Of a stretch of DNA of 64,000 bases, positions 13,248-63,140 are shown in pieces. Numbering within the stretch: position 1 is the first letter of the stretch; each line of letters starts with the position of its first letter. The DNA is from Kiritimatiellia bacterium (lineage in GTDB: Bacteria; Verrucomicrobiota; Kiritimatiellia; RFP12; UBA1067), in NCBI GenBank assembly GCA_045536845.1, contig JAZSOG010000025.1, positions 56,889 to 120,888 on the forward strand, written 5' to 3'. The position numbers and the translations under genes are program-made. The notes below the pieces were generated by a model. The model was not told the origin of the DNA and ran no database searches. It saw nothing but the letters and a program-made list of their open reading frames with translations.

Positions 13248-13437
13248 GAGTCAGGGGTCGTAACCGCCCCTTGTGGGTGGGCGCGACCCATAGGGAAGCG
13301 ACCAAGCCGAGCGGAGCGAGTGCCGAGTACGCAGTAGTTGGAGTTTAGAGTTGGAGTTGGAGAGTGGAGGGTTAGGGGTCAGGGGTCAGTAGTCAGGAGT
13401 CAGGGGTCAGTGATTAGTGGCTAGTGGTTAGGGACTA
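13246..13437. repeat. Heptamer (AGGGGTC/AGTAGTC/AGGAGTC) and hexamer (GAGTTG) tandem tract
   Basis: Directly visible between convergent CDF and hisF genes. Confidence 0.9.
13260..13325 (+). mobile_element. Short (66 bp) multi-hairpin element GTAACC...GTGCCG
   Basis: Same ends as copies at 24475, 36417 and 63075; removing it restores heptamer phase AGGGGTC|AGTACGC. Confidence 0.75.
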
Positions 13438-14289: not shown

Positions 14290-14380
14290 CTCCAATTCCA
14301 CTCTCCAACTCCAACTCTAAACTCCAACTACTGACTCCTGACCCCTGACCCCTGACTACTCGGCACTCGCTTCGCTCGGC
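14290..14380 (-). repeat. Heptamer/hexamer tract plus right end of the multi-hairpin element (minus strand)
   Basis: Reverse complement reads GCCGAGCGAAGCGAGTGCCG|AGTAGTCAGGGGTC...GAGTTGGAGTTGGAGAGTGG. Confidence 0.8.
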
Positions 14381-16137: not shown

Positions 16138-16331
16138 TTCTCATGTCAAAGCAAGACTTTAGAGATTTCGTATTCTCTACAAATACGGACGGAAGCGGCA
16201 AGGCCGCAAATAAGGGAAGTGAAATACCGCAAAAGTCGGAATCAAAATACCACAAATATCAGAAACGCACTCTTGACTTCTGGGGGATAAAAGTAGTATA
16301 ATATGCGCAATTCACAAGAGAAATTGCGACT

Positions 16332-16682: not shown

Positions 16683-16752
16683 CGTTGCCTTTGCCGCACT
16701 TGTGCGATTGGCGAAAAGGCGCCCTCAGTAAGTGCTGTTTTTGATATAATAC

Positions 16753-17006
16753 TCACTGTCAGAACGGGAACGTTACTGGCCTCATAGCTCCTCGACGAGA
16801 CCCGCCGCGGAGAGGCCGGCAGGATCGGCCATCGGTTGCAAGTCTAGCATCGGGAAATTACGACACTCTTGGATGGCTGTTTTATGATTTGCAAGGTGTT
16901 ACCAATTTGTGGTGTCGCCTTGTCGCATATTCAGCCAGGCCGTCGTAAGCCTCCCGAGCATGTGTTCAAGGCGCGCCACTCTAACAAAATAGAGAGGCGC
17001 GCTTTT
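16753..17006 (+). ncRNA. Candidate structured RNA/leader, copy B, ending in an intrinsic terminator
   Basis: TGATATAAT at 16742; 73 nt repeat unit; long hairpin ~16851-16956; terminator GCGCGCC..GGCGCGC-TTTT at 16971-17006. Confidence 0.5.
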
Positions 17007-17037
17007 CTGTTTAAGACTACTGATGCGAGGACTAAGA

Positions 17038-19419
17038 ATGAGCGAGGCAGAGGTTTACGCATGCAAGAGATCTGTTGTTGATTTCGTAGATGCTAAAAGT
17101 TCTGACATCCTTGGTGAGGTCGTAGCTGGGTCAGGTAATTTTTGCATATTGCAAACCCAACGGGAAGCCTGGCAGCGGGAAATAGATTTGCTCCAAGGAA
17201 TTTTGAAAGATGAGAGATTTAAAAAGGCAACTAATCGAATCTACTTTGAATTTAACTTAATGCGTTTTGCCAAACGTGTTGATGTGGTTCTGATTCTTGA
17301 TGGCGTCTTGATCTGTTTGGAATTCAAGACTGATCAGATTGGCGGGGCGGGGAAGTCATATTTGGCGCAGGACAAGGCTCAGGCATTGGCGTATGCCGAT
17401 GAGTTCTCCCAATTTCACAGCACTAGTAGCAAATGTCCCATTGTGCCCATGTTGGTCGTGCCAGGTGCGCCTGACATGATGTGTGAGGTTGTTTTGAACA
17501 ACGCAAACATTTATGGACTTCTATGCGTTAATGAAAATACTTTGTCGGCAGCACTCAAAGCCGTGCTTGATAAAAAAGATAAAGATAATTGGGGTGATCT
17601 CATAAGTGATTCAGACAAGTGGGAAACAGGAGAGTACAATACGGTTCCGACGATAGTCGAGGCGGCAGGGCGTCTTTTTGAGAATCAGAATGTTGAAGCA
17701 ATCACTCGCTCTGGGACGGACGTTACGAAAACAATCCGTACGATAGAAAACATAATACGTGTTGCGGAGGAGAAAAAGAAGTGCGTGCTTTGCTTGGTGA
17801 CAGGAGAGCCAGGGGCAGGCAAGACGCTTATTGGGCTTCAGATTGCATCGTCGCACATGAAGAAGAAGTTGTTGCCAAATGAAGAATCGGGTGGGGACGA
17901 TCTCATTCGTAAAGTGATGCTCTCTGGGAATTATCCACTGGTGAAGGTGCTTAAGGAGTCGCTTGTCAGAAATATTTACGGGCGGCTTAAGGCATGCAAG
18001 GATCTGATGAATAACGAAGGTGGTTCTTTGACCGATGAGCAGAAGCGTTTTATCTTGTCGTGCGGATTCCAAGTTCAACCGACTGGGAAAAAGAAAAAGA
18101 TCAAGGGTTCGAAAATCTCTGTTGAAATGCAAGAGCTTTGGACGATTTCGAAGTTCACGGACAAGGGGAAGACAGAAGTTAAGAAAGCACAGGATAGTCT
18201 TGAATGTCGGAAGTTCTCAAGAACATTCGTTGAGGCGACTGTTTCTTCGATGATCCAAATGGTTTCGCATTTTCGACGTGGATGGGAGTTGTCCGAGAAC
18301 CCTCCAGTGGAAAATGTCTTTGTTTTTGACGAGGCTCAGCGCGCTTGGAGCTTTAACCAAGTGAAAAGGAAAGATAAGAATACCCACCCTGACCAGATTC
18401 GCAGGAAGTGGTCTGAACCGCGTACATTGTTAGAATATTTGAATAGACATAGTGCGACGGACGGGTGGTGTGTGGCTATTGCGCTTGTAGGCCACGGACA
18501 GGACATACATGAAGGTGAGGCTGGAATAGGAGAGTGGTACAAGGCACTGGAGGATAGCGAGAATCTCAAAGATTGGGTTGTGTGTTGTTCTGATGGTCAG
18601 GGATTGATAGATAAAGGTGTGACACAGGAGATCAATCCTGATTACGGTGAGGATATTGATTACAGCATGCTTCACCTCAAGGATATGCAGCGTAGTTTTA
18701 AGGCAAAGGAAGTCGGCCCATTTGTCAATGCATTGCTTAAGGGGAGGGAGGGGCTTGAAGAAGCGAAGCGTTTAATTGAAGAAATCAACAAGACATTCCC
18801 GTTGTACATTACGCAGGACGTAGACCTTGCTAAGCAATGGATTGTAGAAAAGTCCGATAATGGCAGACGTAGATGTGGCTCTGTAATGTCGTCTCGAGCT
18901 GTTCGCTTGCGGGCATATGGGTTTCAGACTCTTGCCCAGGGTTTTGATGAGGCTACATGGTTCCTTGAGCCGTCGGACAATATCAACTCATCAAATACAC
19001 TTGAGATTTCAGCTACTGAATTCAAAATTCAAGGACTCGAGTTGGATTACGTCTTAGTGGGATGGGATGGTGATCTATTCTATAATTCTGAGAAGGGCGT
19101 TTTTGAAGCTAGGCATTTCTCGTTAAAAGCTAATGCCTGGAAAGAAGTGAAGTGTCTAAGTAAGGACGACGAAGTCGGCAAGGCAGATGGAGAATCAGAT
19201 GATGCTGACGTTGATCCGAAAGACAAGGACAGACATCTAAGAAATGCATATCGAGTATTACTTACACGCGCACGGCAGGGAATGGTCATCTTTGTACCAA
19301 AGGGCAAACCAGATGATAGCGATCAAACAAATCTATCGCACGTGAATTATGATGATACATATAGTTTTCTGCATGATATGGTTGGCATAAAGGAATTTGA
19401 GGGTAAAAAGGATAGATGA
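17038..19419 (+). CDS. DUF2075/Schlafen-group-3-like SF1 helicase with N-terminal PD-(D/E)xK nuclease
   Basis: RVDVV...LEFK; GEPGAGKT; DEAQRAW; QGLELDY; NAYRVLLTRARQG; Lys-rich insertion. Confidence 0.85.
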   Translation: MSEAEVYACKRSVVDFVDAKSSDILGEVVAGSGNFCILQTQREAWQREIDLLQGILKDERFKKATNRIYFEFNLMRFAKRVDVVLILDGVLICLEFKTDQIGGAGKSYLAQDKAQALAYADEFSQFHSTSSKCPIVPMLVVPGAPDMMCEVVLNNANIYGLLCVNENTLSAALKAVLDKKDKDNWGDLISDSDKWETGEYNTVPTIVEAAGRLFENQNVEAITRSGTDVTKTIRTIENIIRVAEEKKKCVLCLVTGEPGAGKTLIGLQIASSHMKKKLLPNEESGGDDLIRKVMLSGNYPLVKVLKESLVRNIYGRLKACKDLMNNEGGSLTDEQKRFILSCGFQVQPTGKKKKIKGSKISVEMQELWTISKFTDKGKTEVKKAQDSLECRKFSRTFVEATVSSMIQMVSHFRRGWELSENPPVENVFVFDEAQRAWSFNQVKRKDKNTHPDQIRRKWSEPRTLLEYLNRHSATDGWCVAIALVGHGQDIHEGEAGIGEWYKALEDSENLKDWVVCCSDGQGLIDKGVTQEINPDYGEDIDYSMLHLKDMQRSFKAKEVGPFVNALLKGREGLEEAKRLIEEINKTFPLYITQDVDLAKQWIVEKSDNGRRRCGSVMSSRAVRLRAYGFQTLAQGFDEATWFLEPSDNINSSNTLEISATEFKIQGLELDYVLVGWDGDLFYNSEKGVFEARHFSLKANAWKEVKCLSKDDEVGKADGESDDADVDPKDKDRHLRNAYRVLLTRARQGMVIFVPKGKPDDSDQTNLSHVNYDDTYSFLHDMVGIKEFEGKKDR

Positions 19420-19507
19420 AGATGAGTTACAGAAAAGAAATGGGCGGGATTTGTAGTAGGGCGGCACGCAGGTGTTTTCGTGTTCTTAATTCTTTGGAGG
19501 GTGAATC

Positions 19508-21410
19508 ATGACGGATTGGAGTTTTCCCACTGCAACAGATGACTATGAAGGCAAGGGGCTCAATGATTCTGGCATCGAGACATTTAATGATGATTGTCTG
19601 AAGGGGCTTGCTCGCGAGATATGCCAGAACTCATTGGATGCAAGACGCAAGCAAGGATGTTCCTGAAGAACAGCCTGTAATAGTCGAGTTTTGCAGATTC
19701 AACATATCGCCGGAGAGATTCCCAGGTAAAGATACGTTTTATCAGGCACTGAAGAAGTCGTTGGAGTTTTGGGAGAACAGAGAAGATGAAAAGACTGAGA
19801 ATTTTTTCAAGGAGGCATTGGAGCAGATTGGGTATTTGAGTATGCCTTGGCTTCGTATTAGCGACTTCTATACCACTGGTTTGAACGGCGTTTCAAAAGG
19901 ACATACGCATAGTGCTACTACGCCCTGGAGTAGTCTTGTCATGAGTTCTGGCGTTTCGAATAAGGGAGGGGGAAGCGGAGGTTCGTTTGGAATTGGTAAG
20001 TTTGCGACTTTTTCCTGCTCGAAATTCAGGACAAGCTTTTATTCCACGCTTACTAATGAGGGCGAGAAGGGCTTTCAAGGCGTGGCTAGGTTGGTGTCGT
20101 TTGAAAGTGAGTGTGGTGGCGTTACCTTGGGGAACGGGTATTATCGTGAAGATGGGAGGCCATTGAATGCCGGCCCCAGGATTGACGATTCTTTTGAAAG
20201 GGGCGAAAGAAGCGGGACGGACATTTTCGTGCCTGCGTTTTGTGGGGGAGAAACATGGTTTGACGACGTTACTTCTTCTGTGTTAGACGGTTTTCTGTTC
20301 GCCATATTTAAAAATAAGCTTGAAGTTCGATTGATGGATGATCGAGGAGGGACTCTCATTCTTAATAGAGAGTGGTTGGACAATCAATACCGGCTGGGCA
20401 AATTAACGAACCGGCCGACCGTGAGATACAATTACGAAGTCTTGAAAAATAATGATCCTGACAGGGTGTTCAAGAAAGACTTTGGAGAGGATGGTTATTT
20501 GGAATTGCGGCTTATGTTGGCGCCAGATTTGGACAGGCGTGTTTCTATGATCCGTGAGACAGGCATGAAGATATACGCCAAGGGCAATTTCCCTGCCAGT
20601 ATCTCATTTTCTGGCGTTCTTGTTGTGCACGGAGAGGAGCTAAATAAGCGCATTAAAAAATTCGAGAACCCGCAGCACACCAAGTGGGAGCCGAAGAGAA
20701 ATCCGTCGGATGCATCGCTTTTGGAAGATATTAATCGTTTCTGCCGCCAATCGCTTAGCATGCTTGTCGAAAAGAGCTCGTCTGAGGAATTGGACGCTGG
20801 GCTTGGAGATGTTTTGCCGGCAATTGGTTTGTCGGAAAAACAAGAAGAGCGAGAAACGCTAAGCGCGAAGATCAATAGCCTCACTGAGACCAAACGAAAG
20901 CGGAGACGAGCCGTTACTAAATCTGATGCCGACGAAGAAGGTAACTCTGTTGGGGAAGAGGATTTGCTTGACGACGCGAAAGGTTCTGGCGGTGGCCCTG
21001 GCGAAGACGAAAGTTCTAGGTCGGGAGATAAGGAGCATGATGGCGATGGACAGGGAGAAGGCAACGGCCCGTCTGAGGACGGCGACCGAAAGCAACCCAA
21101 GCTGCGTAACGTGAAGCCTGGCAAGTATAGATTTGCATGCACAAACGAGAGCCAGGGCGAATACAGGATGTTCATTGTGCCGGATGTGACGGAGCAGAAT
21201 GGTGTTCTTGCGTTAAATGCCGTGGCGGAATTGAACACCTATGAGGCGGCTATTGTTTCGGCAAGGACTAACGACGGGGATGAGCTGAAGATTGATGGGA
21301 ACAAGATCATTGGGATAAAGTTTAGCAAAGGAGAACAGTTGCAGATTTTGCTGAAGCTGGACTATTCAGACTATGTTTCACTGGAGGTGATGTGGTATGG
21401 AGCTGTTTGA
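19508..21410 (+). pseudogene. GHKL/MORC-like ATPase, frameshifted by a CAAG duplication at 19648-19655
   Basis: RBS plus ATG 19508 encodes LAREICQNSLDA (motif I) then stops at 19666; LRISDFYTTGL, GSFGIGK and GTDIF lie in the +1 frame ORF 19608..21410. Confidence 0.8.
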
Positions 21411-22311
21411 CAAACGTTATCCGTATCCAGTGCTTACTGCGCGCACTGACGACTATATTGGGTGCTCTTTTGACGTGGAGGGTGAGTCAATTAGGCACGA
21501 CTCCGTGCTTGAGTTGTCGCTCAATGCAAAGCTCGATTGCAAAAGCCTCCAATCGCTTATCGAACGTGGGGATGCGGCGATTATTCTGCATGTCGAGTGT
21601 TCCAGAAGCGCATACAGAAAGTCTCACAAGCTTCCTTTGGGGGCGCACGTCATAACGATTTCCTCCGCCGAGGTTTCGGGTAGGGTTTCGCTTTGTCCGT
21701 TTATCGTGGCTCGGCGAGATGTTGAGGAATATAAGAGCGAGCAGTTTAATCCGATTTACCAGGACCTTGCATTCAAAATACGCAGTGGAGCCGTGCTGGC
21801 AGAGGGAATAGAGAAGAGCGTATACGTTGACACATCAACGCATGACATGGACTATAAGCCGGACATTTTCTCGGTTGTGCCGGACAAGTCGATGGACGAG
21901 GATGAAAACGAGAAAAAGTGCATTAAGGTCGATCCGTGCAACAATAAAATCGTGATCCATATGCCGACAAGGGCGTTTAACCAATATGGTGCATTGCTCA
22001 AATCTGGAATATCAAGCGCGATTGTCCTGTGCGTAGTTATTCTCCCGGCGATGATGGAAGCGCTGTCCCGTATGCGCGATGCGTATAAAAATGAAGAGTT
22101 GGAAGACTTCGAGGATTTTGTCTGGTTCAATTCGGTCAAAGAACGGATGAAGCAACTCTATCCAGAGGCGCGTCGGGACATGTGCCGGTTTGTGCGTGAG
22201 AAAATGGAGATAGCGTCTGTCGCGCAATCTTTGATAAAGTCACCGGTTGTTGATGCGCTGGATATGCTTGCCAACTCGGGTTCGAGTGCGGGAGGTGCCG
22301 ATGAAAATTAA
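21397..22311 (+). CDS. Hypothetical protein (YPYPVL N-terminus), operonic with the GHKL ATPase
   Basis: 304 aa, overlaps both neighbours. Confidence 0.75.
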   Translation: MELFDKRYPYPVLTARTDDYIGCSFDVEGESIRHDSVLELSLNAKLDCKSLQSLIERGDAAIILHVECSRSAYRKSHKLPLGAHVITISSAEVSGRVSLCPFIVARRDVEEYKSEQFNPIYQDLAFKIRSGAVLAEGIEKSVYVDTSTHDMDYKPDIFSVVPDKSMDEDENEKKCIKVDPCNNKIVIHMPTRAFNQYGALLKSGISSAIVLCVVILPAMMEALSRMRDAYKNEELEDFEDFVWFNSVKERMKQLYPEARRDMCRFVREKMEIASVAQSLIKSPVVDALDMLANSGSSAGGADEN

Positions 22312-23044
22312 ATTCCTTTCAGAATTGGCGTTGGACACAGTAGCTGTCAACTTGAAGAAGTATATGCCGCTTTTTGGCGACGATACGAACGAAAGGTTGC
22401 TGTCGGAACTCCATAAGGAGCTGTCGGAACCACCGTTAAAGGAGTCAAACTTCTCGTTGCCAGATAATCTAAACCTGGACGGTACTCTTCGTGGTGGTCA
22501 GGAAGTGGAAAACGTCCGAAAGTTCCATGGAGCGTTGAAGATGCTACCTCATTCCATTGCCTGCGACTGTCGTATTTGGGCAGGGCTCACGATCGGGCAC
22601 TTTTGGCAGTTTACAAAAAGCCGCTGGGATTTTGCTAAGGGTGTCACTACGTCCAAGGTGAGAGACCACTTTCTGTTCATGGGACAGTCTAAGAAAGCAT
22701 ATACACGCAATGCGCTTTCCCGCCTTTGGTGGATAGGTGATCTGACGTATGACGAAGGCAGAGATGATCCCTATGAAATTACTTCTTTCACAATGAAGGA
22801 CACGGATTACGTCGTTAATTTGCTAGAGCGTAACTTCTCAAGTAATAGGCTTATCTTTAGAGAGTTTGTGGAGGCTGTGGAGTGCGGACGAAGGGAAAAT
22901 CTTGTCATCGAAAGACCGGAAATCCGTGAGTTGTGTAAGTACCTCAATCTGCTCGGAGGTGTTTATGTCTTGGACGCGTTGCCTCCCGGTATGATCAGGG
23001 ACAAGATATACGCACGGGCAAAGAAAATCAACGAGAAAAAGTAA
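22301..23044 (+). CDS. DUF6339-like protein
   Basis: RBS GGAGGT then ATG 22301; RNALSRLWW motif (family call from memory). Confidence 0.6.
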   Translation: MKIKFLSELALDTVAVNLKKYMPLFGDDTNERLLSELHKELSEPPLKESNFSLPDNLNLDGTLRGGQEVENVRKFHGALKMLPHSIACDCRIWAGLTIGHFWQFTKSRWDFAKGVTTSKVRDHFLFMGQSKKAYTRNALSRLWWIGDLTYDEGRDDPYEITSFTMKDTDYVVNLLERNFSSNRLIFREFVEAVECGRRENLVIERPEIRELCKYLNLLGGVYVLDALPPGMIRDKIYARAKKINEKK

Positions 23045-23048
23045 GAAT

Positions 23049-24332
23049 ATGCACTTTAAGCTGGGAGAGTTGTTTTGCGGGCCGGGGGGAATGGCCGTAG
23101 CCTCGACGAGAGTTGCGCCTATCAGGTCGGCCACGCGCGAAGAGTTTAGCTTGAGCCACTCATGGGGGGTAGATTTCTCTAAGGCTGCAATCGAAACGTT
23201 CAAAGCTAATCTTGGAGAAGGTAATGGCATAGAGATGGATGCCAAAGAATTCGTTGCAACTGAGTTGACCCCGGATAAGAAGATCAACGCTCTAGCGTTC
23301 GGATTCCCCTGTAATAGCTTCAGTCAGGTCGGTAAGCGCAAAGGAATCGGCGATGAAGAATTCGGAGAATTGTACAAAACTGGGATTTCCGTTATTGAGG
23401 CATATTCGCCAGATTGGTTTGTCGCCGAGAATGTAAGTGGTATCAGCAAATCGACTGCTGTGGGTCATGATGATGCGAGATGGGAGTTTGTGAAGATACT
23501 TCAAGACCTTGCAGATGCGGGGAAAGGATATAATGTTGTCGCACATCTGTACAAGTTTGAAGAGTATGGTGTACCGCAAGCAAGGCATCGTTACGTTATT
23601 GTCGGCATAAGACATGACATTGCCGACAAAAAGAAGATTGAATTTCGACCTCCCGCACCGCTGTATGGTCCTGGGCGCTTACATCGTTTTGTTACATGCA
23701 AGGATGTCCTTGATAAAGTCTCTAATGAGACAGAATGGGGAGGAAAAAAAACAAGACAATCGGAAACGGTTGTGGCACGTCTGAAATTCACGCCTCCTGG
23801 CGAAAATGCTTGGAAGCTTGATGAATTAGTTGATCCAAGTAAATACTCGGATGAAGAACTAGATGAGTATCTCAAGAGCATTCCTTGGTACGAGACAGAT
23901 ATTGCGCCAAAATTCCCAATTCGGAATTTGCACGATAGGATGGAAACCATAAGAGTACGTATTGAGGAAGTTCGTCTCCATTGCAAAAAGGCAAGAATGA
24001 GTCACATATACCGCCGCCTTGATCCTAATCGCCCAGCGTACACATTGACAGGTAGTGGCGGCGGCGGCACACACATATACCACTATTCCGAACATCGTGC
24101 GCTTACGAACGAAGAGCGAGCTGCATTGCAAACGTTTCCTCCTGAATTTGTTTTTAAGGGTGGCCCTGAGCAGATTCGCAGACAGATTGGTATGGCGGTA
24201 CCGACTAAGGGTGCGGAGCAAATCTTTGATGCGATTCTAAAGACATTTGCAAAGATTCCATACGACTGCGTGGAGCCAGACCCTGCATTGGTGTTTTATC
24301 CTTGTAATAAAAGAGTGCGTATAAGGGGATGA
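23049..24332 (+). CDS. DNA (cytosine-5) methyltransferase
   Basis: ELFCGPGG, GFPCN, ENV, PQARHR, QIGMAVP; clearly different from the duplicated MTases. Confidence 0.92.
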   Translation: MHFKLGELFCGPGGMAVASTRVAPIRSATREEFSLSHSWGVDFSKAAIETFKANLGEGNGIEMDAKEFVATELTPDKKINALAFGFPCNSFSQVGKRKGIGDEEFGELYKTGISVIEAYSPDWFVAENVSGISKSTAVGHDDARWEFVKILQDLADAGKGYNVVAHLYKFEEYGVPQARHRYVIVGIRHDIADKKKIEFRPPAPLYGPGRLHRFVTCKDVLDKVSNETEWGGKKTRQSETVVARLKFTPPGENAWKLDELVDPSKYSDEELDEYLKSIPWYETDIAPKFPIRNLHDRMETIRVRIEEVRLHCKKARMSHIYRRLDPNRPAYTLTGSGGGGTHIYHYSEHRALTNEERAALQTFPPEFVFKGGPEQIRRQIGMAVPTKGAEQIFDAILKTFAKIPYDCVEPDPALVFYPCNKRVRIRG

Positions 24333-24445
24333 CACTTAATCAAAAGAGGCAGGCGGATCTCTTTGTAGAAGCTTTACTGTACATGACTCATATGCGAGCG
24401 ATAGGTTTGCCGCGGCATTTGGTACAATCTGCGTAGGAGAAACGT

Positions 24446-24722
24446 ATGGGACTTGTGAAGACTAGAAGACTTGCGTAACCGCCCCTTGCGGGGGTTCGCG
24501 ACCCATAGGGAGATGCGCCTGCGACGAAGTCGTCAGGTTGGCCGAGGCCGAAGGCCGAGCCGCGAAGCGGCCGCAAGGGCCCGCGCGAACACGCCGAGCG
24601 AACGCGAGTGCCGAGCGATGCAGAAGCAGCTGCGGGCAAAGGTGGGCATGAAGCCGCCGATGAAGGGCGATTCGTGCAACGCCCGCCCGCGGCAGTTTTG
24701 TGTCAATAATGTAGTAAAATAA
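24446..24722 (+). pseudogene. Small basic ORF (MGLVKTRRLA...) interrupted by the hairpin element
   Basis: Paralog of intact 31318..31467; removing 24475..24613 restores MGLVKTRRLAAMQKQLRAK. Confidence 0.65.
24475..24613 (+). mobile_element. Long (139 bp) multi-hairpin element
   Basis: GTAACC...GTGCCG ends; inserted at TGC^AG with no target duplication. Confidence 0.8.
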
Positions 24723-24787
24723 TATACTTTTGACAGTCTGTACTTTTGCCATTGTCAAATTTGCCTATTTTTAGTATACTTTTGACA
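24723..24787 (+). promoter_or_regulatory. AbiE promoter/operator
   Basis: TTGTCA-N17-TATACT ending 6 nt before ATG; repeats TATACTTTTGACA at 24723 and 24775, TGTACTTTTGCCA at 24739. Confidence 0.65.
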
Positions 24788-25260
24788 TGACCTCGTACGA
24801 GAAGATATGGGATACGGCTGAAGACAACCATGGTGTGATTACTTCTGCGCAAGCTAAGCGGCTGGGAGTGAAGCCTGCAGCTTTGGTGTCGATGGCCACA
24901 AACCGAAAGCTTATTCGCATCGGGCAGGGGGTGTATAAGCTTTTCCACCATGCGCCTGGTCCGTATGATGAATATGCGCAAGCTGTCGCGATGGTTGGTG
25001 ATACGGCATTTGTCCGTGGGGCAAGCGCTTTGATGATGCGCGGGCTGATACCGTTTGATCCAGGGCGATTCTACCTTGGCGTGGCAAGGCGGACGCGGCG
25101 TAAACTACCTTCGGGCTATGATGTGAAGTTTGTCGCCAGTCCTGAGATAGAGTTTATTGAGGGCATTGCGGTGGAGCGTGTCAAGGCGGCGGTTGAGGAC
25201 GCCCGCAAATGCGGAGCGGTCGATGTGGACAGGCTGATGGATTTGGAGTCGCAGTCATGA
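24787..25260 (+). CDS. AbiEi-type type IV TA antitoxin
   Basis: HGVITSAQAKRLGV...LIRIGQGVY wHTH pattern; coupled to nucleotidyltransferase. Confidence 0.85.
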   Translation: MTSYEKIWDTAEDNHGVITSAQAKRLGVKPAALVSMATNRKLIRIGQGVYKLFHHAPGPYDEYAQAVAMVGDTAFVRGASALMMRGLIPFDPGRFYLGVARRTRRKLPSGYDVKFVASPEIEFIEGIAVERVKAAVEDARKCGAVDVDRLMDLESQS

Positions 25261-26084
25261 AGAATCGTCCGATGACGCGTGTAAATCTTGATAAGGCCAT
25301 TGCTCGTATGGCGGGTGATGACCCTCGTTTGACCGTTGATATGCGGATGTCGATGGCGAATGCGATTGTTGGGCAATTTCTTCCCGAAGGCGTTGTGAAG
25401 GGTGGGACATCACTCAAGTTTCGCTTTGGGGAGGGCCATGCCCGTTACACATTGGATCTTGACACGGCGTGGAAAACAGATTTAGACACATTCTTGTCTA
25501 AATTCAGGCGCAATCTTGCAAATGGGTGGGAGGGTTTCTCGGGGGAACTCATCGTTCGTCCGCAGGCTTCGCCCCGGGCAATACCCTTTGAATATGTAAT
25601 GCAGCCTTGTGATGTTAAATTGAGCTATATGGGACGTTCATGGTGCACGATTCGCCTTGAGGTCGGACATAATGAAGTTGGTGACGCCGACGAGGCGGAA
25701 ATGACGCCTGTGCCTGAAGACCTCGCAGTACACTTCCGAGAGCTTTGCTTCCCGGTGCCAGGTTCGCTTCCCCTGATGAAAATTCCGTTTCAGATTGCAC
25801 AGAAACTCCATGGGGCGACAGGTGAAGGAAGTCGAAGAGCGCATGATCTTATCGATCTTCAATTGATTGCCGACGCATATGAAATTGACCTTAAGGAGAC
25901 GCGTGATGTATGCGAGCGCCTGTTTAGATATAGGAGATGCCAACCTTGGCCGCCCAAGGTGACGAAGGTGGATGGATGGGATGACATCTATTTGACGCAA
26001 AAGCTCAACCTCCCTGTTCTTCCGACTGTCGATCAGGCAATTGAATGGGCCAATGGACTCATCGCGAGAATAGCCGGGGCTTGA
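25257..26084 (+). CDS. AbiEii-type nucleotidyltransferase toxin
   Basis: KGGTSL...RYTLDLD; QKLH...RAHDLIDL; ATGA overlap. Confidence 0.85.
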   Translation: MKNRPMTRVNLDKAIARMAGDDPRLTVDMRMSMANAIVGQFLPEGVVKGGTSLKFRFGEGHARYTLDLDTAWKTDLDTFLSKFRRNLANGWEGFSGELIVRPQASPRAIPFEYVMQPCDVKLSYMGRSWCTIRLEVGHNEVGDADEAEMTPVPEDLAVHFRELCFPVPGSLPLMKIPFQIAQKLHGATGEGSRRAHDLIDLQLIADAYEIDLKETRDVCERLFRYRRCQPWPPKVTKVDGWDDIYLTQKLNLPVLPTVDQAIEWANGLIARIAGA

Positions 26085-26136
26085 TTATTTGATGTAGATG
26101 ATTAATGTGTTCGCGCGGCGAGAGAGGTGAATGATT

Positions 26137-26277
26137 ATGGCGATGCCACAGAGAGATGAGACGATTGAGGAGATCAAGCGGCTGGATGCTTTGCTTGAGT
26201 ATGCGGTCATGCACGGGGACGAGGCCGAGGCCGAGCGCCTCCGCGCCGCCCTGCGCAAGCTGACCGACGAGGTCTAA
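26137..26277 (+). CDS. 46 aa helical hypothetical protein (below ORF-track cutoff)
   Basis: RBS GAGGTG; MAMPQRDETIEEIKRLDALLEYAVMHGDEAEAERLRAALRKLTDEV. Confidence 0.6.
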   Translation: MAMPQRDETIEEIKRLDALLEYAVMHGDEAEAERLRAALRKLTDEV

Positions 26278-26393
26278 TCCGCGGCAGTTGTGTCGCGACG
26301 GTGTGAAATGTGATAAAATATCTACACAAGCACAAGGAGATGTTGCAAGGTGTAACCTGACACGTGGTGTGTAATTGGAGGTAGCCGAATAAC

Positions 26394-29300
26394 GTGAGTC
26401 CGGGAGGAACCGCAAACCGTTCCATAGCGTTCGTCGATCTGGAAGTAGGAGTTCAAGATCGGCGGATACATGACGTTGGCGCCGCGCGCGGAGATGGCGC
26501 TGTGTTTCATGCGTCGGACGTTCGTGGGCTGCTTCCATTCCTTGACGGGGTCTCGACAATCTGCGGGCACAACATAGTGCACCATGACATGCGCTTCCTG
26601 GAACCGCATCTTGGCGCTCGGAAGTTCTCTTTGGTCGACACTCTTTACTGGTCGCCCATCCTGTTTCCAGAGCGTCCGTATCACGCGCTCCTGAAGGACG
26701 ACAAGCTTCAGCGGGACGAGCTTAACAACCCTCTTAGCGACGCCAAGAAGGCCATGAGCCTTTATGGTGACGAGGTCGCTGCGTTCAGGGAGCTTGGTGC
26801 AGTTCGGCGTGGAATATACCTGGCGTTGCTTGGCTCCGTCCCGGAGTTCTCTGGTTTCCTCGGGTTGCATGCGACTGACTCTCGGTTGGCTGTCCCTGTT
26901 GAGGTCGCGATTGCCGCGGAGTTCAGGGGTAAAATATGCCAGCACGCGAATATCGGCGGACTAGTCCGTCGCTACCCAGTGGAGCTTGCCTACGCATTGG
27001 CGCTCATAGGCACATCTTCAATTGAATCGATAACGCCGCCTTGGGTGTGCAAGAACTACCCGAAGGTAGAAAACGTCATCAACTATCTTTGCAACACGCC
27101 GTGCCAGGAGGGTTGCCCATATTGCCGTGAACGGCTCGACGTCCGGAAGGCTCTCAAGCGTATGTTCGGATTCGATGCGTTTCGGACCTACGCGGGCGAG
27201 CCACTTCAGGAAAAAGCGGCGCGCGCCGCCGTCGACGGCAAGTCTCTGATTGCGGTGTTCCCGACGGGTGGAGGCAAGTCGATCACTTTTCAGCTTCCAG
27301 CCCTGATGGCCGGCGAAAATTCGCATGGGCTTACTGTGGTGATCTCGCCGCTTCAGTCGCTCATGAAGGACCAGGTCGACAACCTCGATGCGAAGGGGCT
27401 TACTGGCGCTGTGACTGTCAATGGGCTGCTCAATCCGATTGAGCGTGCTGAAGCGTTCAGGCGTGTTGCCGACGGTTCGGCCTCTCTTCTGTACATATCG
27501 CCGGAGCAACTGCGCTCCAAGACAGTTGAAAGCATTCTCCTTGGGCGCAACGTCGTTCGTTTCGTGATTGACGAGGCCCACTGTTTCTCAGCTTGGGGAC
27601 ACGACTTTCGCGTTGACTATCTTTACATCGGGGACTTCCTTCGCAAGTTCCAGGAGAGCAAGAACCTGCCTAAGCCGATCCCTGTCTCGTGCTTTACGGC
27701 GACCGCGAAGCAGAAGGTCATTAGCGACATCCGGGACTACTTCCGCGGCAAGACGGGCATAGAGCTTGAGGTGTTCGCTTCCACGGCCACGCGCGAGAAC
27801 CTGCATTACGAGGTGCTTCACAAGGAGACAGACGGCGACAAGTATGCCGCTCTTCGCCTGCTGATCGAGCAGAAGGACTGTCCGACGATCGTCTATGTCT
27901 CCCGCACCAAGCGAACGCATGAGCTCGCGCAGAAGCTGACGGACGACGGATTCCCGGCACTGCCGTACAACGGCAAGATGGAGCCGGATCAGAAGATCGA
28001 GAACCAGGACGCCTTCATCCGCAACGACGTCAAGGTCATCGTTGCAACGTCCGCCTTCGGAATGGGGGTGGACAAGAAGGACGTCAGACTGGTTGTCCAC
28101 TACGATATTTCGGATTCGCTCGAGAACTACGTCCAGGAGGCCGGGCGCGCGGGCCGTGACCCATCGCTCCAGGCCGAGTGCTACGTCCTCTTTTGCGACG
28201 ACGACCTAGACAAGCACTTCCTCATGCTGAACCAGACGAAGCTCAGCTTGAGCGACATCCAGATGATCTGGCGAGCGATAAAGCGCATGTCTCCTACGGG
28301 CCGTCAGTTCTGCACCTCGGCGCTTGAGCTTGCGCGCGCTGCCGGATGGAACGATTCCGTAGCCGACATAGAGACGAGGGTGCGGACGGCAGTCTCGGCG
28401 CTTGAAGAGGCCGGGTACGTCGAGCGAGGGCAGAACATGCCGAGGGTGTATGCGACCGGGATCCTGGCAGCGAGCATGGCGGAGGCGGCATCTCGCATTG
28501 ACAGCTCTGCTCGTCTTGACGACGCGCAAAAGGAGATGGCCAAGTGTGTCATGAAGTCCTTGATTTCCGCGCGGAGTGTGTCGAAGGCGGGCAACGGGGA
28601 CGCGGAGTCGAGAATTGACTACATTGCGGACATTCTCGGACTCGATCGCAAGGACGTAGTCGGTGTCATAGACGCGATGAGGCAAGACGGGCTCCTGGCC
28701 GACACTCAGGACATGTCTGCGACCATCTTTCGAGACGACACGGCAAGAAAGTCTACAAATGTCATCGAACGTTTTGCGAAGGCCGAATCGGTTCTGCTAT
28801 CGCGAATCAGCAAGAATGACGCCGACCTGGACTTGAACCTCAAGGAGTTGAACGACGAGATGTCCGGAGGCGCTGGCAATTCAAACGGCGTCAAGAACAT
28901 GCGCACGGTCATGCGTTTCTGGTCCGCTAAGGGCTGGGTTAAGAAAGTTGAAAGGCCGAATAGCGACTATGTCCGCATAATCCCGACCATGTCGGTGGAA
29001 CAGCTGCGAGATCGTTTCGACAGAAGGCTGGAAATGGCAAGGTTCGCTGTCGACAGCCTGTTTCGGAAGGCGCTCCTTGCGCAGAAGGCGGAGGGCGAGC
29101 AGGGTGAGCCCCGTGGTGACGGATGCACAGTTGAGTTTTCGCTTGTCGGCATGCTCAAGGACTTCAATTCTGCTCCGAAGCTTGATTTCGGTGGCCGTCC
29201 GGCCAGCTTGTCCGAGATGTCAGATGCACTGCTCTACCTGTCGCGGATTGGCGCGATGAAACTGGAGGGTGGGTTTCTAGTAGTGTACAACGGAATGTGC

Positions 29301-31277
29301 CTGAAGCGCAAGGTCGTGGACAACAAGCGTCTGTTCCGCAAGGACGACTATCACACGCTTGACGTCTACTACAAGCTGAAAGTCCAGCAGATTCACATCG
29401 TCGGCGAATTTGCCAACATGATGGTACGTGACCATGCCGCGGCGCTGAAGTTCGTTAACGACTACTTCCACATGGAGTACACCTCCTTCATCTCGAGGTA
29501 TTTCAGGGGGAGCAAGGCCAAGGCCATAGAGAGCAGCATAACTGCTTCAAAGAAAGCTGAGATCTTCGGCAAGCTTTCCGACACGCAGAGGCGAATCATC
29601 TCGGATGACAAGTCGGAAGTCATAGCGGTTGCCGCCGGGCCCGGCAGCGGAAAGACGCTCGTGCTTGTGCACAAATTGGCATCTCTTCTTCTTTTGGAGG
29701 ACGTAAAGCCGGAAGGGCTACTGATGCTGACGTTTTCGAGGGCGGCGGCCGTAGTGTTCAAAAAACGCCTGGTCAAGCTTATCGGGCAGACGGCGCATTT
29801 TGTCGACATAAAGACATTCCATTCGTATTGCTTTGACCTTGTCGGCAAGGTGGGAAGCCTCGACTACAGCGACATCGTCGTCAAAACTGCCGCGACGATG
29901 ATTGAAAACGGGGAGGTCGAGCAGAGCCGCATTTCGAAGAGTGTACTCGTCATCGACGAGGCGCAGGACATGGACTATGACTCTGCGCGACTCGTGCATG
30001 CGCTGAGGGTTGCAAACGAGAGCATGCGTGTGATAGCCGTCGGAGACGACGACCAGAACATCTTCGGGTTCCGCGGGTCCGATTCGCGGTATCTGCGCGC
30101 TCTTTCCGAGGAGCCTTGCGCAAGACTTTACGAGATGGTCGAGAACTTCCGCAGCGCGGCGATGATTATCTCGTTCGCGAACGCCTTTGCCGATACGATG
30201 CCGGAGCGCATGAAGTCCGCGCCCCTTCAGCCGTCTGCCGGTGCGGAAGAAGGGAGTGTGCGCCTTGTGAGACATTCGTCCGCGAATTTCGAATCTCTTG
30301 TCGTGGAAGACTGGGAGCGCGAGAACAGGCCTGGCTCGTCGTGCATAATGACATGGACGAATGATGAAGCGCTCCGGGTTTTTAGCTGTCTTGTGCAAAA
30401 GGGTGTCAAGGCAAGGCTGATTCAGTCCAACGACGGATTTAATCTTGCCAACCTTGCCGAGTTGCGCTATTTCAGACGGCTTGTCATGAAGCAGCAAGAA
30501 GTCAGTGTGATTTCCGCTAATTTGTGGAACGAGGCACGTGAACGACTCTGCAAGACATATGCCGCGAGCGACTGCCTGGCGGACTGTCTTGCGCTCATCG
30601 ACGCATTTTCCGAGACTGCGCGTGTAAAGTACAAAAGTGATTTCGACGAGTTTCTGTCCGAGTCGAAGATCGAGGATTTTGGCCGTGCAGAGAAGGGTGA
30701 GGTGGTCGTTTCCACGATTCACAAGTCCAAGGGGAGAGAGTTTGATTCGGTGTATGTCGTGCTGAATGATGTAGGTCAACTAACGGATGAAAGGCGTCGC
30801 GCCATATATGTTGGCATCACCAGGGCGAAGAAGCTGTTGAGGGTGCATTATTCAGATGAAGGACTGTTCTCGGATGTTGAAGCGGAAGGCATAGAGAGGG
30901 TTACTGATCGTCGAGTTGCAAAGCCGCTGGACAATGTAATAGTACAGCTTTCGCATAAGGATATTGTGCTCGATTTCTTTTTGGACAAAAAGGCAGCTAT
31001 TTGCGAACTCAGGTCTGGCGATGCCCTTGAAATTGACGGGACGCACCTTTCTGCTACCATCGGTGGACGGCGCATGTGGGTCGCGAAGTTCTCGCAGTCG
31101 TTTCTCCAGCATCTGGCCGAGCTTGAAGACAAGGGTTACAGACCGCGCTTTGCCAAAGTGAGATATGTTGTGGCTTGGAAGAAGGAAGATGATGAGCGGG
31201 AGACTGCGGTGATTCTACCTGATCTGTACCTTGCTCTTGTGGGTGCAAAAGAGTTCAAAAGGGTCAAAGCTTATTGA
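26394..31277 (+). CDS. DEDD exonuclease-like + RecQ (SF2) + UvrD-like (SF1) helicase fusion
   Basis: FVDLE/GHNI/DTL; TGGGKS, DEAH, QEAGRAGR; AGPGSGKT, DEAQD, GDDDQ, STIHKSKGREFD. Confidence 0.9.
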   Translation: MSPGGTANRSIAFVDLEVGVQDRRIHDVGAARGDGAVFHASDVRGLLPFLDGVSTICGHNIVHHDMRFLEPHLGARKFSLVDTLYWSPILFPERPYHALLKDDKLQRDELNNPLSDAKKAMSLYGDEVAAFRELGAVRRGIYLALLGSVPEFSGFLGLHATDSRLAVPVEVAIAAEFRGKICQHANIGGLVRRYPVELAYALALIGTSSIESITPPWVCKNYPKVENVINYLCNTPCQEGCPYCRERLDVRKALKRMFGFDAFRTYAGEPLQEKAARAAVDGKSLIAVFPTGGGKSITFQLPALMAGENSHGLTVVISPLQSLMKDQVDNLDAKGLTGAVTVNGLLNPIERAEAFRRVADGSASLLYISPEQLRSKTVESILLGRNVVRFVIDEAHCFSAWGHDFRVDYLYIGDFLRKFQESKNLPKPIPVSCFTATAKQKVISDIRDYFRGKTGIELEVFASTATRENLHYEVLHKETDGDKYAALRLLIEQKDCPTIVYVSRTKRTHELAQKLTDDGFPALPYNGKMEPDQKIENQDAFIRNDVKVIVATSAFGMGVDKKDVRLVVHYDISDSLENYVQEAGRAGRDPSLQAECYVLFCDDDLDKHFLMLNQTKLSLSDIQMIWRAIKRMSPTGRQFCTSALELARAAGWNDSVADIETRVRTAVSALEEAGYVERGQNMPRVYATGILAASMAEAASRIDSSARLDDAQKEMAKCVMKSLISARSVSKAGNGDAESRIDYIADILGLDRKDVVGVIDAMRQDGLLADTQDMSATIFRDDTARKSTNVIERFAKAESVLLSRISKNDADLDLNLKELNDEMSGGAGNSNGVKNMRTVMRFWSAKGWVKKVERPNSDYVRIIPTMSVEQLRDRFDRRLEMARFAVDSLFRKALLAQKAEGEQGEPRGDGCTVEFSLVGMLKDFNSAPKLDFGGRPASLSEMSDALLYLSRIGAMKLEGGFLVVYNGMCLKRKVVDNKRLFRKDDYHTLDVYYKLKVQQIHIVGEFANMMVRDHAAALKFVNDYFHMEYTSFISRYFRGSKAKAIESSITASKKAEIFGKLSDTQRRIISDDKSEVIAVAAGPGSGKTLVLVHKLASLLLLEDVKPEGLLMLTFSRAAAVVFKKRLVKLIGQTAHFVDIKTFHSYCFDLVGKVGSLDYSDIVVKTAATMIENGEVEQSRISKSVLVIDEAQDMDYDSARLVHALRVANESMRVIAVGDDDQNIFGFRGSDSRYLRALSEEPCARLYEMVENFRSAAMIISFANAFADTMPERMKSAPLQPSAGAEEGSVRLVRHSSANFESLVVEDWERENRPGSSCIMTWTNDEALRVFSCLVQKGVKARLIQSNDGFNLANLAELRYFRRLVMKQQEVSVISANLWNEARERLCKTYAASDCLADCLALIDAFSETARVKYKSDFDEFLSESKIEDFGRAEKGEVVVSTIHKSKGREFDSVYVVLNDVGQLTDERRRAIYVGITRAKKLLRVHYSDEGLFSDVEAEGIERVTDRRVAKPLDNVIVQLSHKDIVLDFFLDKKAAICELRSGDALEIDGTHLSATIGGRRMWVAKFSQSFLQHLAELEDKGYRPRFAKVRYVVAWKKEDDERETAVILPDLYLALVGAKEFKRVKAY

Positions 31278-31317
31278 TACAGCTTGATTGATACAGTAGC
31301 AATCATATGCGGATGTC

Positions 31318-31467
31318 ATGGGACTTGTGAAGACGAGAAGATTGGCGGCGATGCAGAAGCAGCAGCGGGCAAAAGCCGTGATGAAACCGCCGATGAAGGG
31401 CGGTGCCGGGAAGGGCGTTCCGCGACAGTTTGCGACAGCGCCTAAAGCGCCTCTAAAAGCATTTTAG
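31318..31467 (+). CDS. 49 aa basic small ORF (empty-site paralog of 24446)
   Basis: MGLVKTRRLAAMQKQQRAKAVMKPPMKG...; homologous to the interrupted copy. Confidence 0.45.
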   Translation: MGLVKTRRLAAMQKQQRAKAVMKPPMKGGAGKGVPRQFATAPKAPLKAF

Positions 31468-31567
31468 AAACCCCGCGGCAGATTTGCCGCGCGCTACAGC
31501 TGCCGATATTCCGCGCTTGAGTGGCCTGCTGGTGTTTGGTATAATGGTTGGCAAAGAGGGTGGCGAT

Positions 31568-32371: not shown

Positions 32372-32438
32372 AGGTGCTATGATGCTTGCCTCTTGGCAAT
32401 CGAGAAATATCCAAATGAATGAGAAAGGAGAAAGGTCG

Positions 32439-32795: not shown

Positions 32796-32895
32796 AAGTG
32801 GGACGACGGGGGCTAACACCTCTGACATAGCAGCGTCGCGGCGGATTTGCCGCGGCGTTTGGTACAATCTGGGCATCTTAAAGGAGCGAGCTTAG

Positions 32896-34420: not shown

Positions 34421-34978
34421 ATGGGGTTTGTGAAGATTAGACAGCGGAAACCGATTGGGAGGATTTGGCCTCCCTTGTTGTTGATTTGCCCGTTTCTGTT
34501 AGTGGCCGTTGTCTTTACGCTGGTGGATAGCTGCAGTGTGCGTGAGAGAGCGGCGGCATTGGAAAGAGCAGTCGACGATTGCGAAGTCGGTGGCGACGAA
34601 CATGAGCTGCTGGTCACCGGATACTGCAACTGCGGGAAGTGTTGCGGCTGGCGCAAGAAGTGGTTCTTCTTCGGCGAGCCGGTCTATAACTACGGCAAGA
34701 TGAAAGGCAAGCCCAAGAAGGTCGGCGTCACGGCTTCAGGTACGGTCGCGGCGAAGGGGACGATTGCCGCCGATCCGGCGGTCTATCCCTTTGGAACAAA
34801 AATCGAGATTCCCGGATATGGCTCGGGAATCGTCCAGGACGTCGGAGGATCGATCAAGGGCGCCCACATCGATATATGGTTTCCGTCCCATATGGAAGCT
34901 TTGGCCTGGGGCGCCCGCAAGCTCAAGGTTAAAGTTGAGAATTCAAAAGAGAATTCAAAAGGGGCGGACTCACGATAG
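34421..34978 (+). CDS. 3D-domain (MltA/RlpA-like) cell-wall protein
   Basis: VTGYC, TASG, IAAD, QDVGGSIKGAHIDIW. Confidence 0.88.
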   Translation: MGFVKIRQRKPIGRIWPPLLLICPFLLVAVVFTLVDSCSVRERAAALERAVDDCEVGGDEHELLVTGYCNCGKCCGWRKKWFFFGEPVYNYGKMKGKPKKVGVTASGTVAAKGTIAADPAVYPFGTKIEIPGYGSGIVQDVGGSIKGAHIDIWFPSHMEALAWGARKLKVKVENSKENSKGADSR

Positions 34979-35125
34979 GGGTCAGGAGTCAGTAGTCAGG
35001 GGTCAGGAGTCAGTAGTCAGGGGTCAGGAGTCAGTAGTCAGGGGTCAGGAGTCAGTAGTCAGGAGTTAGGGGTCAGGGGTCAGGAGTTAGGAGTCAGGGG
35101 TCAGTGAGTTGGAGTTGGAGAGTGG
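34977..35125. repeat. Heptamer tract (21 bp super-repeat AGGGGTC-AGGAGTC-AGTAGTC) plus GAGTTG hexamers
   Basis: Directly visible; starts in the TAG stop of the 3D gene. Confidence 0.95.
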
Positions 35126-36416: not shown

Positions 36417-36554
36417 GTAACCGCCCCTTGCGGGGGTTCGCGACCCATAGGGAGATGCGCCCGCGCCGAAGGCGTCGGGTTGGCCGAGGCCGCAGGCCGA
36501 GCCGCGAAGCGGTCGCAAGAGCCCGCGCGACCAAGCCGAGCGGAGCGAGTGCCG
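36417..36554 (+). mobile_element. Long (138 bp) multi-hairpin element inside a heptamer tract
   Basis: Same ends; removal restores AGGGGTC|AGTACGC. Confidence 0.8.
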
Positions 36555-62662: not shown

Positions 62663-62695
62663 GGATTTTTAACGCAGAGACGCAGAGGCGCAGAG

Positions 62696-63055
62696 ATGCA
62701 CAAGTTGATTGACATCTTTCTGAAGGGCGGGCCGGTCATGTGGCCGATTCTGGGGCTTTCCATCCTCGGGCTCGCGATTCTTATCTGGAAGGCGTTTGAG
62801 TTCCGCGCGGGGCGGGTCAACGCAAAGGGGCTGACGATTGTCTCGACGATCATCACCGCGGAGCCGATGCTCGGCATCCTCGGTACAGTCATCGGCATCA
62901 TGCAGACGTTTGGCGCGCTGAATGGCACTGACGCCAATCCTCTCGCGGCGACTGCCGGCATCGGCGAGGCGCTTATCACGACCGCGGCGGGGCTTATCGC
63001 GTCGCTGATTCTCCTTTTCCCGTACAATGTACTTGATTCAAAGGTGGAGGAGTAG
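62696..63055 (+). CDS. exbB: MotA/TolQ/ExbB family protein
   Basis: GGPVMWP, PMLGILGTVIG, GIGEALITTAAGL. Confidence 0.85.
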   Translation: MHKLIDIFLKGGPVMWPILGLSILGLAILIWKAFEFRAGRVNAKGLTIVSTIITAEPMLGILGTVIGIMQTFGALNGTDANPLAATAGIGEALITTAAGLIASLILLFPYNVLDSKVEE

Positions 63056-63074: not shown

Positions 63075-63140
63075 GTAACCGCCCCTTGCGGGGGTTCGCG
63101 ACCCATAGGGAAGCGAACACGCCGAGCGGAGCGAGTGCCG
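63075..63140 (+). mobile_element. Short (66 bp) multi-hairpin element in a heptamer tract
   Basis: Removal restores AGTAGTC|AGGGGTC. Confidence 0.8.

Follow-up and report, generated by a model that had tools for sequence, protein, structure and literature searches.

How tiny hairpin repeats move has been an open question for years, whether they are repetitive extragenic palindromes (REPs) without a REPtron, CGTC REPs, Rickettsia palindromic elements (RPEs) or the small dispersed repeats (SDRs) of Nostoc. Insertion sequences (IS) of the IS200/IS605 kind insert 3′ of a conserved target of 4–5 nt, which abuts their left end only. The SDRs of Nostoc punctiforme are reportedly 21–27 nt long, lie in tandem heptamers, occur nested and share a fold that is kept by compensation; their presence is also said to vary between homologous genes, and their families to differ in sequence. 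Here we describe a repeat of 66 nt (the element) found in a 64,000-nt stretch of DNA from a Kiritimatiellia bacterium (contig JAZSOG010000025.1, positions 56,889 to 120,888). This whole stretch is referred to below as the window, and plain coordinates follow its numbering. The element inserts between C and AG and is in all likelihood mobile.

For REPs, the relevant sections of PMC3333891 describe an enzyme of Escherichia coli, TnpA-REP, which binds a hairpin with a GTAG tag beside it and needs that tag. Its cleavage is limited to single-stranded DNA and occurs at C^T and beside inverted REPs, and strand exchange is possible; according to the same sections, IS608 uses the lagging-strand template. 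A model for REPINs (REP doublets forming hairpins) is laid out in part of PMC3116915. RPEs and intragenic REPs insert in frame and add a peptide segment, as stated in passages of PMC10969869 and PMC3733652. SDR-like repeats were not found outside Nostocaceae among cyanobacterial genomes enriched in the HIP1 octamer, at least in those passages of PMC5861425 that concern them.

Occupied and empty insertion sites

The window belongs to a metagenome-assembled genome (MAG) of 3.04 Mb in 55 contigs, with 59% G+C and a completeness of 89% (the source genome, G000). A first-pass annotation, made from the letters of the window alone, had reported four copies with identical ends as well as a right end on the minus strand at 14361..14380. 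Re-reading the sequence gave the same result: copies of 66 bp at 13260..13325 and 63075..63140, one of 139 bp at 24475..24613 and one of 138 bp at 36417..36554, all on the plus strand and all, as can be read directly, between C and AG. Probes of 20 nt made from the two ends found four left and four right matches in the window and none, for either end, in 100 dinucleotide-preserving shuffles.

Three of the copies lie at a unit junction of AGGRGTC heptamers, and their excision restores the heptamer register. The one at 13260 is intergenic, between a cation-efflux gene (ending at 13247) and a convergent gene of the His_biosynth family, while those at 36417 and 63075 lie 17 nt downstream of a GH5 cellulase gene and 20 nt downstream of the open reading frame (ORF) 62696–63055, respectively. 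The copy at 24475 interrupts a small ORF on the plus strand. Its first 29 nt (MGLVKTRRLA..., read from the sequence) occupy 24446..24474, and the rest, beginning with the target AG, lies at 24614..24722; with the element present, the frame reaches a stop after ten codons (GCG TAA). Removal restores CTT GCA GCG ATG, as the annotation had claimed, and the uninterrupted paralogous ORF at 31318..31470 (plus strand) reads TTG GCG GCG ATG. The corresponding junction of the paralog, between 31346 and 31347, is GC|GG without C^AG, which is present at every occupied site of the window.

BLAST and nhmmer searches of the source genome yielded 20 full copies (16 canonical ones of 66 bp, 2 long ones and 2 of a second subfamily), besides 2 right-end fragments; four weaker rows (E >2) were left out of this count. 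Of 80 other genomes sampled from the genus, 38 matched the 66-mer (E ≤1e-6) and 42 did not, and no match was obtained in 16 genomes that represent eleven further families of the same order. The closest relatives, ranked by PriA identity, hold 12 (G074), 8 (G003), 6 (G080), 5 (G081) and 4 (G013) copies. True copies occur in records named Kiritimatiellae/Kiritimatiellia, Lentisphaerae and 'uncultured bacterium RUG', and sequencing runs containing DNA of element loci are labelled gut, bovine gut or sheep gut metagenome. The 66-mer had no match in phage and plasmid collections, and the right end had no exact match in viral contigs. In a pattern scan of genome contigs, at least 87 matches were examined in their loci and at least 35 exceeded the similarity score; 52 chance matches in unrelated GC-rich genomes were discarded, along with one Micromonospora record which passed the score but was still due to chance.

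To define the target, nhmmer was run on the source genome and on fetched loci, which reduced 142 rows to 129 full-length matches and these to 112 distinct insertion contexts. The loci were picked for matching the element, orthologous sites of different species were kept as separate contexts unless their flanks were identical, and the context counts describe the family, not independent events. The C^AG rule read in the window holds across the genus: C precedes the element in 91 of 112 contexts, and A and G follow it in 109 and 104 of 111. The right-hand AG (98% and 94%) is therefore stronger than the left-hand C (81%). Restricting the analysis to 48 de-duplicated contexts outside arrays gave a wider consensus, G-N-C^A-G-C (G at −3 in 35/48, C at −1 in 32/48, A at +1 in 44/46, G at +2 in 41/46 and C at +3 in 28/46). 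There is neither a terminal inverted repeat nor a target-site duplication at the exact filled and empty junctions, in agreement with the annotation. With these boundaries neither is possible, since the element ends in G but is preceded by C, and no second AG is present on its left.

By type, 33 contexts are (AGAGRCGC)n octamer arrays, often preceded by TTTTAACGC, while 13 are AGGRGTC heptamers, 10 are GGGGAAC heptamers and 56 were classed as 'other'. Many of the latter are small repeats recurring with the element inside; the rest include unique sequence. Since the array units AGGRGTC, AGAGRCGC and AGGGAAC all begin with AG and end with C, the element always lies exactly between units. The source genome has 68 heptamer arrays (of at least three units) and 21 octamer arrays, and 14 of its 20 copies lie in such arrays. 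Unoccupied examples in the window are an AGGRGTC array of 19 units at 34977..35109 (plus strand), representing the commonest target type in this genome, and the octamer array TTTTTAACGC(AGAGRCGC)n at 62672..62700 (plus strand), representing the second commonest. Unit junctions of such 7–8-nt arrays are the main landing place of the element, which also inserts into other small palindromic repeats. Hairpin-loop targeting was dropped as a general rule, because the enrichment of flanking stems is modest: a stem of at least 5 bp surrounds the junction at 8 of 43 de-duplicated non-array sites vs 7% of 5000 random CAG sites.

Two further features of the arrays were seen. At 46635–46841, ~14 AGGRGTC/AGTAGTC heptamers run straight into inverted copies of themselves and form a palindrome of ~200 bp. 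Another short repeat that is abundant, AGTTGG/GAGTTGGAGTTGGAG, is regularly found 3′ of heptamer arrays downstream of genes; in the window it occurs at 13336–13369, 14289–14329, 36560–36595, 63167–63205 and 63684–63735, and its 14-mers recur 63–71 times in the genome.

Orthologous sites differ in occupancy. In priA, heptamers lie on both sides of the element in the source genome, whereas G080, 95% identical over the match, shows four heptamers but no element, and G074 (97%) lacks both; a contig of metagenome run X1 skips the priA element plus the adjacent repeats, two separate pieces being matched. The beta-galactosidase site is uninterrupted in G080 (90% identical), and a contig of run X11 joins its flanks without the element (tttttaacgc followed by agagacgcgaagg, in gene sense); contigs of two RNA runs, X15 and X17, had no listed match at either of these sites. 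The macro-domain site is filled in both paralogs of the source genome, in G080 and in a further relative (locus L204, G085), and empty in G013, G074 and G081; the empty sequence equals the excised one in length, with several flanking bases different. Finally, the DUF58 site is filled in two of six genomes (G000 and G074), and the other four have unrelated linkers, one of which holds a different heptamer and a different small insert. At locus L081 (G003), a small hairpin insert of another kind, surrounded by CGCACCC- and AGCACCA-type heptamers, occupies the DUF58 loop at the place where the source genome has GGGGAAC heptamers and the element.

The small-ORF site of the window is a hot spot, occupied in both orientations in different genomes. 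Locus L257 shares the orientation of the window copy, and six relative loci (L003, L006, L020, L211, L223 and L260) carry the opposite one, one or two bases away; every one of these insertions obeys C^AG on the element's own strand. Additionally, four identical copies lie at unrelated loci of the source genome (aroK/aroB, priA, coaE and an intergenic array), which suggests that the element may have been active recently. The long 138/139-bp forms spread as a unit, and the long form recurs in two other genomes at 92–98% identity.

The annotation's view of a non-autonomous repeat family inserted at C^AG is thus borne out by filled and empty sites in a paralog, in orthologs and in a metagenome contig, and we are highly confident that this is a mobile element following a C^AG insertion rule. 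It is nevertheless conceivable that most copies spread without any transposase, by ectopic recombination or gene conversion between near-identical arrays or composite repeats. In half of the contexts (56/112) the element lies in heptamer or octamer arrays whose flanks are nearly identical, AGGRGTC arrays hold all four of the identical copies, and several 'other' contexts are repeat families recurring with the element inside. We nonetheless consider such an origin unlikely: subfamilies are mixed across array types, the three array types share no flank sequence and yet have the same C^AG position, and the insertions into unique coding sequence (macro domain; small ORF, in both orientations) lack flank homology.

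Copies within coding sequence

About half of the copies are located in frame inside genes, a point absent from the first-pass annotation. In the source genome, 10 of the 20 lie within long ORFs, all in sense orientation. Pfam domains surround the insert in 9 of these 10 hosts, and several domains are split in two by it. The supported hosts are PriA, a GH2 beta-galactosidase, shikimate kinase/dehydroquinate synthase, CoaE, an aminotransferase, a DUF58 protein, two Macro-domain proteins and a DUF2339 protein. The unit amounts to 22 codons and is open in five of six frames, so it can persist in genes as 22 extra residues. Two frames are used, one reading RNRPL...SAE (with the codons C|GT and G|AG at its borders) and the other VTAPCGG...RVP.

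A coding-potential filter run over the 112 contexts called 25 copies genic. All of them are 66 nt long; 17 copies have 67 nt, and not one of those was called genic. Twenty of the calls are sense, with none in the TAA-containing frame, and five are antisense. Four of the antisense calls, all in relatives, were confirmed by Pfam (HydF, 2-Hacid_dh, i.e. 2-hydroxyacid dehydrogenase, Peptidase_U32 and DUF4838), and sense-only orientation, true of all ten genic copies in the source genome, was given up as a rule.

These results bear on an explanation at the RNA level, in which the transcript would lose the element as an intron, or the element would be a structured RNA written back into DNA. It starts with GT and is directly followed by AG, its loops are of GNRA type and the ten genic copies of the source genome are in sense. 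However, the four antisense copies lie in frame in confirmed genes, and neither the restriction of genic copies to 66 nt nor the avoidance of the TAA frame by sense copies is expected of spliced introns. The source genome yielded no reverse transcriptase, and the unit has no structural RNA match in Rfam; the window gave no match at gathering scores, and three element-holding loci gave none at E up to 1. We thus regard an RNA-level origin as very improbable. The intron reading was set aside on the indirect grounds just given, and retro-mobility for want of a PF00078 match in the source genome. The antisense in-frame copies and the length restriction argue that the insert is translated and not removed, and this indirect evidence, drawn from sequence comparison, suggests that it is carried through translation rather than spliced.

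At two loci (L074 of G013 and L076 of G081), the macro-domain gene carries a different in-frame insert of ~40–60 residues at a second loop. This suggests that other repeat families also write into coding sequence.

Fold, candidate enzymes and neighbouring features

The unit consists of a GTAAC tag, hairpin 1, a two-tier hairpin 2, a tail hairpin 3 and a final CG, and its conserved 3′ tail ends in GAGTGCCG. Hairpin 1 is CCCC-TTGC-GGGG and hairpin 3 is GCC-GA-GC-GAA-GC-GA-G(T)GC. The second subfamily shares the tag and tail but has different hairpin sequences, such as CCGC-GCAA-GCGG for hairpin 1. Among the 112 copies the tag reads GTAACC in 86, ATAACC in 18 and GTAGCC in 3, each time followed by a 4-bp hairpin. 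On the GTAACC strand the loops are GNA or GNRA, except in hairpin 1 of the main subfamily.

The fold was read from the sequences and tested on 79 distinct ones. In total, 92.8% of cells are paired, compared with 32.5–50.6% when the partners are slid. Cells with a double change number 64 vs 16.4 in shuffles, and in 500 shuffles 64 was never attained. Covariation is confined to the central helix (helix 2), whose four variable pairs occur as UA, GC, CG and AU alternatives, and this helix is maintained by compensatory changes. Hairpins 1 and 3 are almost invariant, so covariation carries no signal there, but hairpin 3 is supported by a tail variant at three loci, in which Watson–Crick pairs replace both tandem G.A positions. 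The present fold took the place of an RNAalifold structure computed from the 79-sequence alignment, which paired hairpin 1 with the inner helix and showed almost no covariation.

The long copies contain 72–73 nested nucleotides that form a repeat family of their own with free-standing copies, which the first-pass annotation had not noticed. In the composite at 24475, this module (24512..24584, plus strand, ~72–73 nt), made of GAA- and GNRA-looped mini-hairpins, lies inside helix 2. A free-standing multi-hairpin module of ~75 nt with its own boundaries was seen in the source genome at C32:60104-60157, C5:7990-8043, C13:1303-1355 and C44:5976-6039. At 14361..14380 on the minus strand, only the right-end 20-mer is present; it abuts AG and heptamers, and joined to it are a GGGGACAGACCCC palindrome and a small repeat module of another kind. 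The fragment is chimeric, combined with a second small repeat family, and does not represent a larger element cut short. Other chimeras share only the left or only the right part of the element. The nested module and these chimeras indicate that the family is modular.

The compensatory changes in helix 2 could also point to a structural motif selected by the host and no longer mobile, such as a protein-binding site, a terminator or an mRNA stabiliser, as proposed for REPs. Three of the four window copies lie just downstream of genes, and several insertions are common to different species. We judge such a role improbable as an explanation of the family, given that half of the copies occupy unrelated positions inside coding sequence, that presence varies among relatives 95–97% identical, that identical copies occur at unrelated loci and that 42 of the 80 sampled genus genomes have no match.

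The annotation had also ascribed movement to single-stranded DNA and HUH chemistry, with the transposase elsewhere in the genome. The source genome does contain four PF01797 (Y1) matches, two paralogs of ~280 aa and two of ~330 aa. Their HUH and Tyr motifs are intact, both kinds score below the cut-off of the NCBIfam model of the REP-associated tyrosine transposase (RAYT), and no informative sequence match to them was found among solved structures. The ~280-aa genes lie at C44:7799-8662 and C25:183590-184612, and the former has inverted GGGGWCWGWCCCC palindromes on either side. From its sequence, this C44-type unit appears itself to be an active IS or something akin to a REPtron. Used as a query, the ~280-aa type matched 12 times in G006 and four times, with equal scores, in G090, and the type-A Y1 is multi-copy in some relatives.

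As the best explanation overall, which we favour by a little more than even chance, this would be a tiny non-autonomous mobile repeat family that folds as single-stranded DNA and is cut and rejoined in trans, most likely by a Y1 HUH enzyme. The GTAACC strand would fold, and a strand-specific nuclease-ligase, probably of the RAYT or IS200 kind, would cut C^G at the left end, G^A at the right end and C^A in the target. The element resembles the substrate of TnpA-REP in its tag, its hairpin and a cut after C, and a Y1 HUH enzyme that acts in trans accordingly remains, in our view, the likeliest single agent; that HUH/Y1 catalysis moves the element is, by analogy, a tentative proposal with about one chance in three. 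In 16 of 20 copies, the GTAACC strand is on the locally G-rich strand (one-sided binomial 0.006).

Several observations weigh against this explanation. All four Y1 genes of the source genome are more than 5 kb away from the nearest copy and none of these genes is flanked by the element, the annotation having suggested a search for Y1/RAYT genes between such ends. What the type-A Y1 on C44 has in its flanks instead is heptamers and GGGGWCWGWCCCC palindromes, of which the genome has 28, and the commonest 14-mers in Y1 flanks are heptamers and GGGGTCTGTCCCC. With Y1 presence called at E up to 1e-40, 17 of the 80 genus genomes have both the element and a type-A Y1, 21 the element only, 10 the Y1 only and 32 neither, a weak co-occurrence confounded by kinship and MAG completeness; 9 of the 38 element-bearing genomes have no match to the Y1 query. 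Conservation extends to both sides of the cut and is stronger for AG than for C, in contrast to the IS608 rule. The strand bias is ambiguous as well, as the same 16 of 20 copies are co-oriented with most genes, so that replication and transcription are inseparable. The mini-hairpins listed in the annotation are present, but DNA folding energies are no better than those of shuffles (z −1.7 to +0.1), which means that stability alone is not evidence, and the ratio of G.T to A.C (16 vs 9) does not decide the folding strand. The circle or tandem junction, which the annotation had suggested looking for, had seven exact matches in metagenome contigs, all attributable to chance as none had element homology around it; this search and that for empty sites covered assembled contigs. 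Finally, recombination alone might account for the spread of those copies that have identical tandem repeats as flanks. HUH mobilisation is therefore a plausible proposal: four Y1 genes exist, none of them linked to the element.

The absent linkage, the weak co-occurrence and the two-sided target, which differs from that of IS200/IS605, would suit a mobile element served by an enzyme other than HUH/Y1, that is, some other and possibly undescribed nuclease or recombinase that reads the folded element and GNC^AGC. CGTC-tagged REPs and RPEs likewise lack a dedicated transposase, according to the part of PMC3733652 devoted to them. However, TnpB (PF07282), IS110 (PF01548) and reverse transcriptase (PF00078) were not found in the 89%-complete source genome, and the layout of tag plus hairpin and the absence of target duplication are typical of HUH substrates. 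Such an enzyme is possible, though we would put it at roughly one chance in three or a little below. A bolder and rather doubtful extension is that one strand-specific nuclease-ligase cutting C^AG would both insert the elements and, by strand transfer between neighbouring cuts, build the arrays of 7–8 nt; all three array units begin with AG and end with C.

With regard to the neighbourhood in the window, the 24475 copy is surrounded by a run of defence-type genes (14608–33684). The run includes a DUF4143/AAA_14 ATPase at 14608–15774 (with another just beyond the run, at 37446–38834), a Schlafen-like helicase (17023–19419), DUF6339 (22247–23044), a C-5 cytosine methylase (23049–24332), AbiEi/AbiEii (24787–26084), a DEAD + UvrD fusion helicase of 1627 aa (26394–31277) and a NERD nuclease (32896–33684). 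The 5′ region of the small ORF (24412–24466, comprising 55 nt upstream of and into its start) recurs with 91% identity ~10 kb downstream, at about 34387–34441, and a motif ahead of its paralog (around 31250–31298) recurs on five other contigs. Elsewhere in the source genome, the palindromic 14–16-mers CGCGGCAAATGCGCCG and CGGCGAATACGCCG occur 25–29 times and TTTTTGGTATAATA 30 times, these being further REP-like and promoter-like repeats. There are also runs of 14–118 C (C21:80913-81057, C19 and C16), three of four within ~155 nt of a contig end, which are probably artefacts of sequencing or assembly.

Comparison with known small repeats

The element appears to share with REPs, the bacterial interspersed mosaic elements (BIMEs) and REPINs served by RAYTs a short unpaired 5′ tag beside a hairpin, here GTAA and, in 3 of 112 copies, GTAG. 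It also has in common with REPs and BIMEs a mosaic of hairpin modules, the absence of target duplication and RAYT-like Y1 genes in the genome. Unlike REPs, it is not extragenic (9 of 10 host ORFs being Pfam-confirmed), numbers ~20 copies instead of hundreds and has an exact, two-sided insertion point. Unlike REPINs, all 20 copies of the source genome are single units, with no inverted pair of full copies found, and in contrast to a REPtron no Y1 gene of that genome is flanked by the element.

Non-autonomous derivatives of IS200/IS605 (palindrome-associated elements) are similar in lacking inverted ends and target duplication, in their fixed orientation to a short target and in a one-strand orientation bias, and they have hairpins near both ends, as the element probably does. 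The target of the element, though, is conserved on both sides (GNC^AGC) and not over 4–5 nt on the left only, and neither an autonomous partner with the same ends nor TnpB was found in the source genome. MITEs, or miniature inverted-repeat transposable elements, are also small, non-autonomous and dispersed, but they have terminal inverted repeats and target duplication, whereas the element has neither.

The Nostoc SDRs are reportedly alike in being embedded in heptamer arrays, in nesting, in a compensated fold and in presence or absence in homologous genes. The element differs in length (66 vs 21–27 nt), in host (Kiritimatiellae vs Nostocaceae) and in target, which is C^AG at the junctions of repeat units rather than the HIP1 octamer. 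RPEs and intragenic GTAG/CGTC REPs likewise insert in frame into unrelated housekeeping genes, but RPEs are ~100–150 bp long with a CGTC tag, compared with 66 nt and a GTAA tag, and no exact dinucleotide rule or link to tandem repeats is reported for them. Literature searches on SDR-like repeats, REP/RAYT and RPEs listed no account of such elements in Kiritimatiellae, the taxon name itself not having been a search term.

The in-frame colonisation of priA, coaE and aroK/aroB makes this a second lineage, far from Rickettsia, in which selfish DNA offers a route for adding loops to proteins. With four Y1 candidates and defined substrates, the mechanism can be tested with oligonucleotides even though the organism is uncultured. 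If one C^AG nuclease-ligase proved to be responsible for both elements and arrays, it would be new machinery of mobile DNA by which essential proteins of Kiritimatiellae, uncultured bacteria of the gut, keep gaining loops, and it could explain the association of heptamers and small repeats in Nostoc. In general, the element is a new variant among small repeats of the REP, SDR and RPE types, differing from each in some of the defining features tested, and it offers an unusually clean case for studying how they move: its insertion point is exact and two-sided, orthologous sites are often filled in one close relative and empty in another, composites are nested, and identical copies suggest recent activity.

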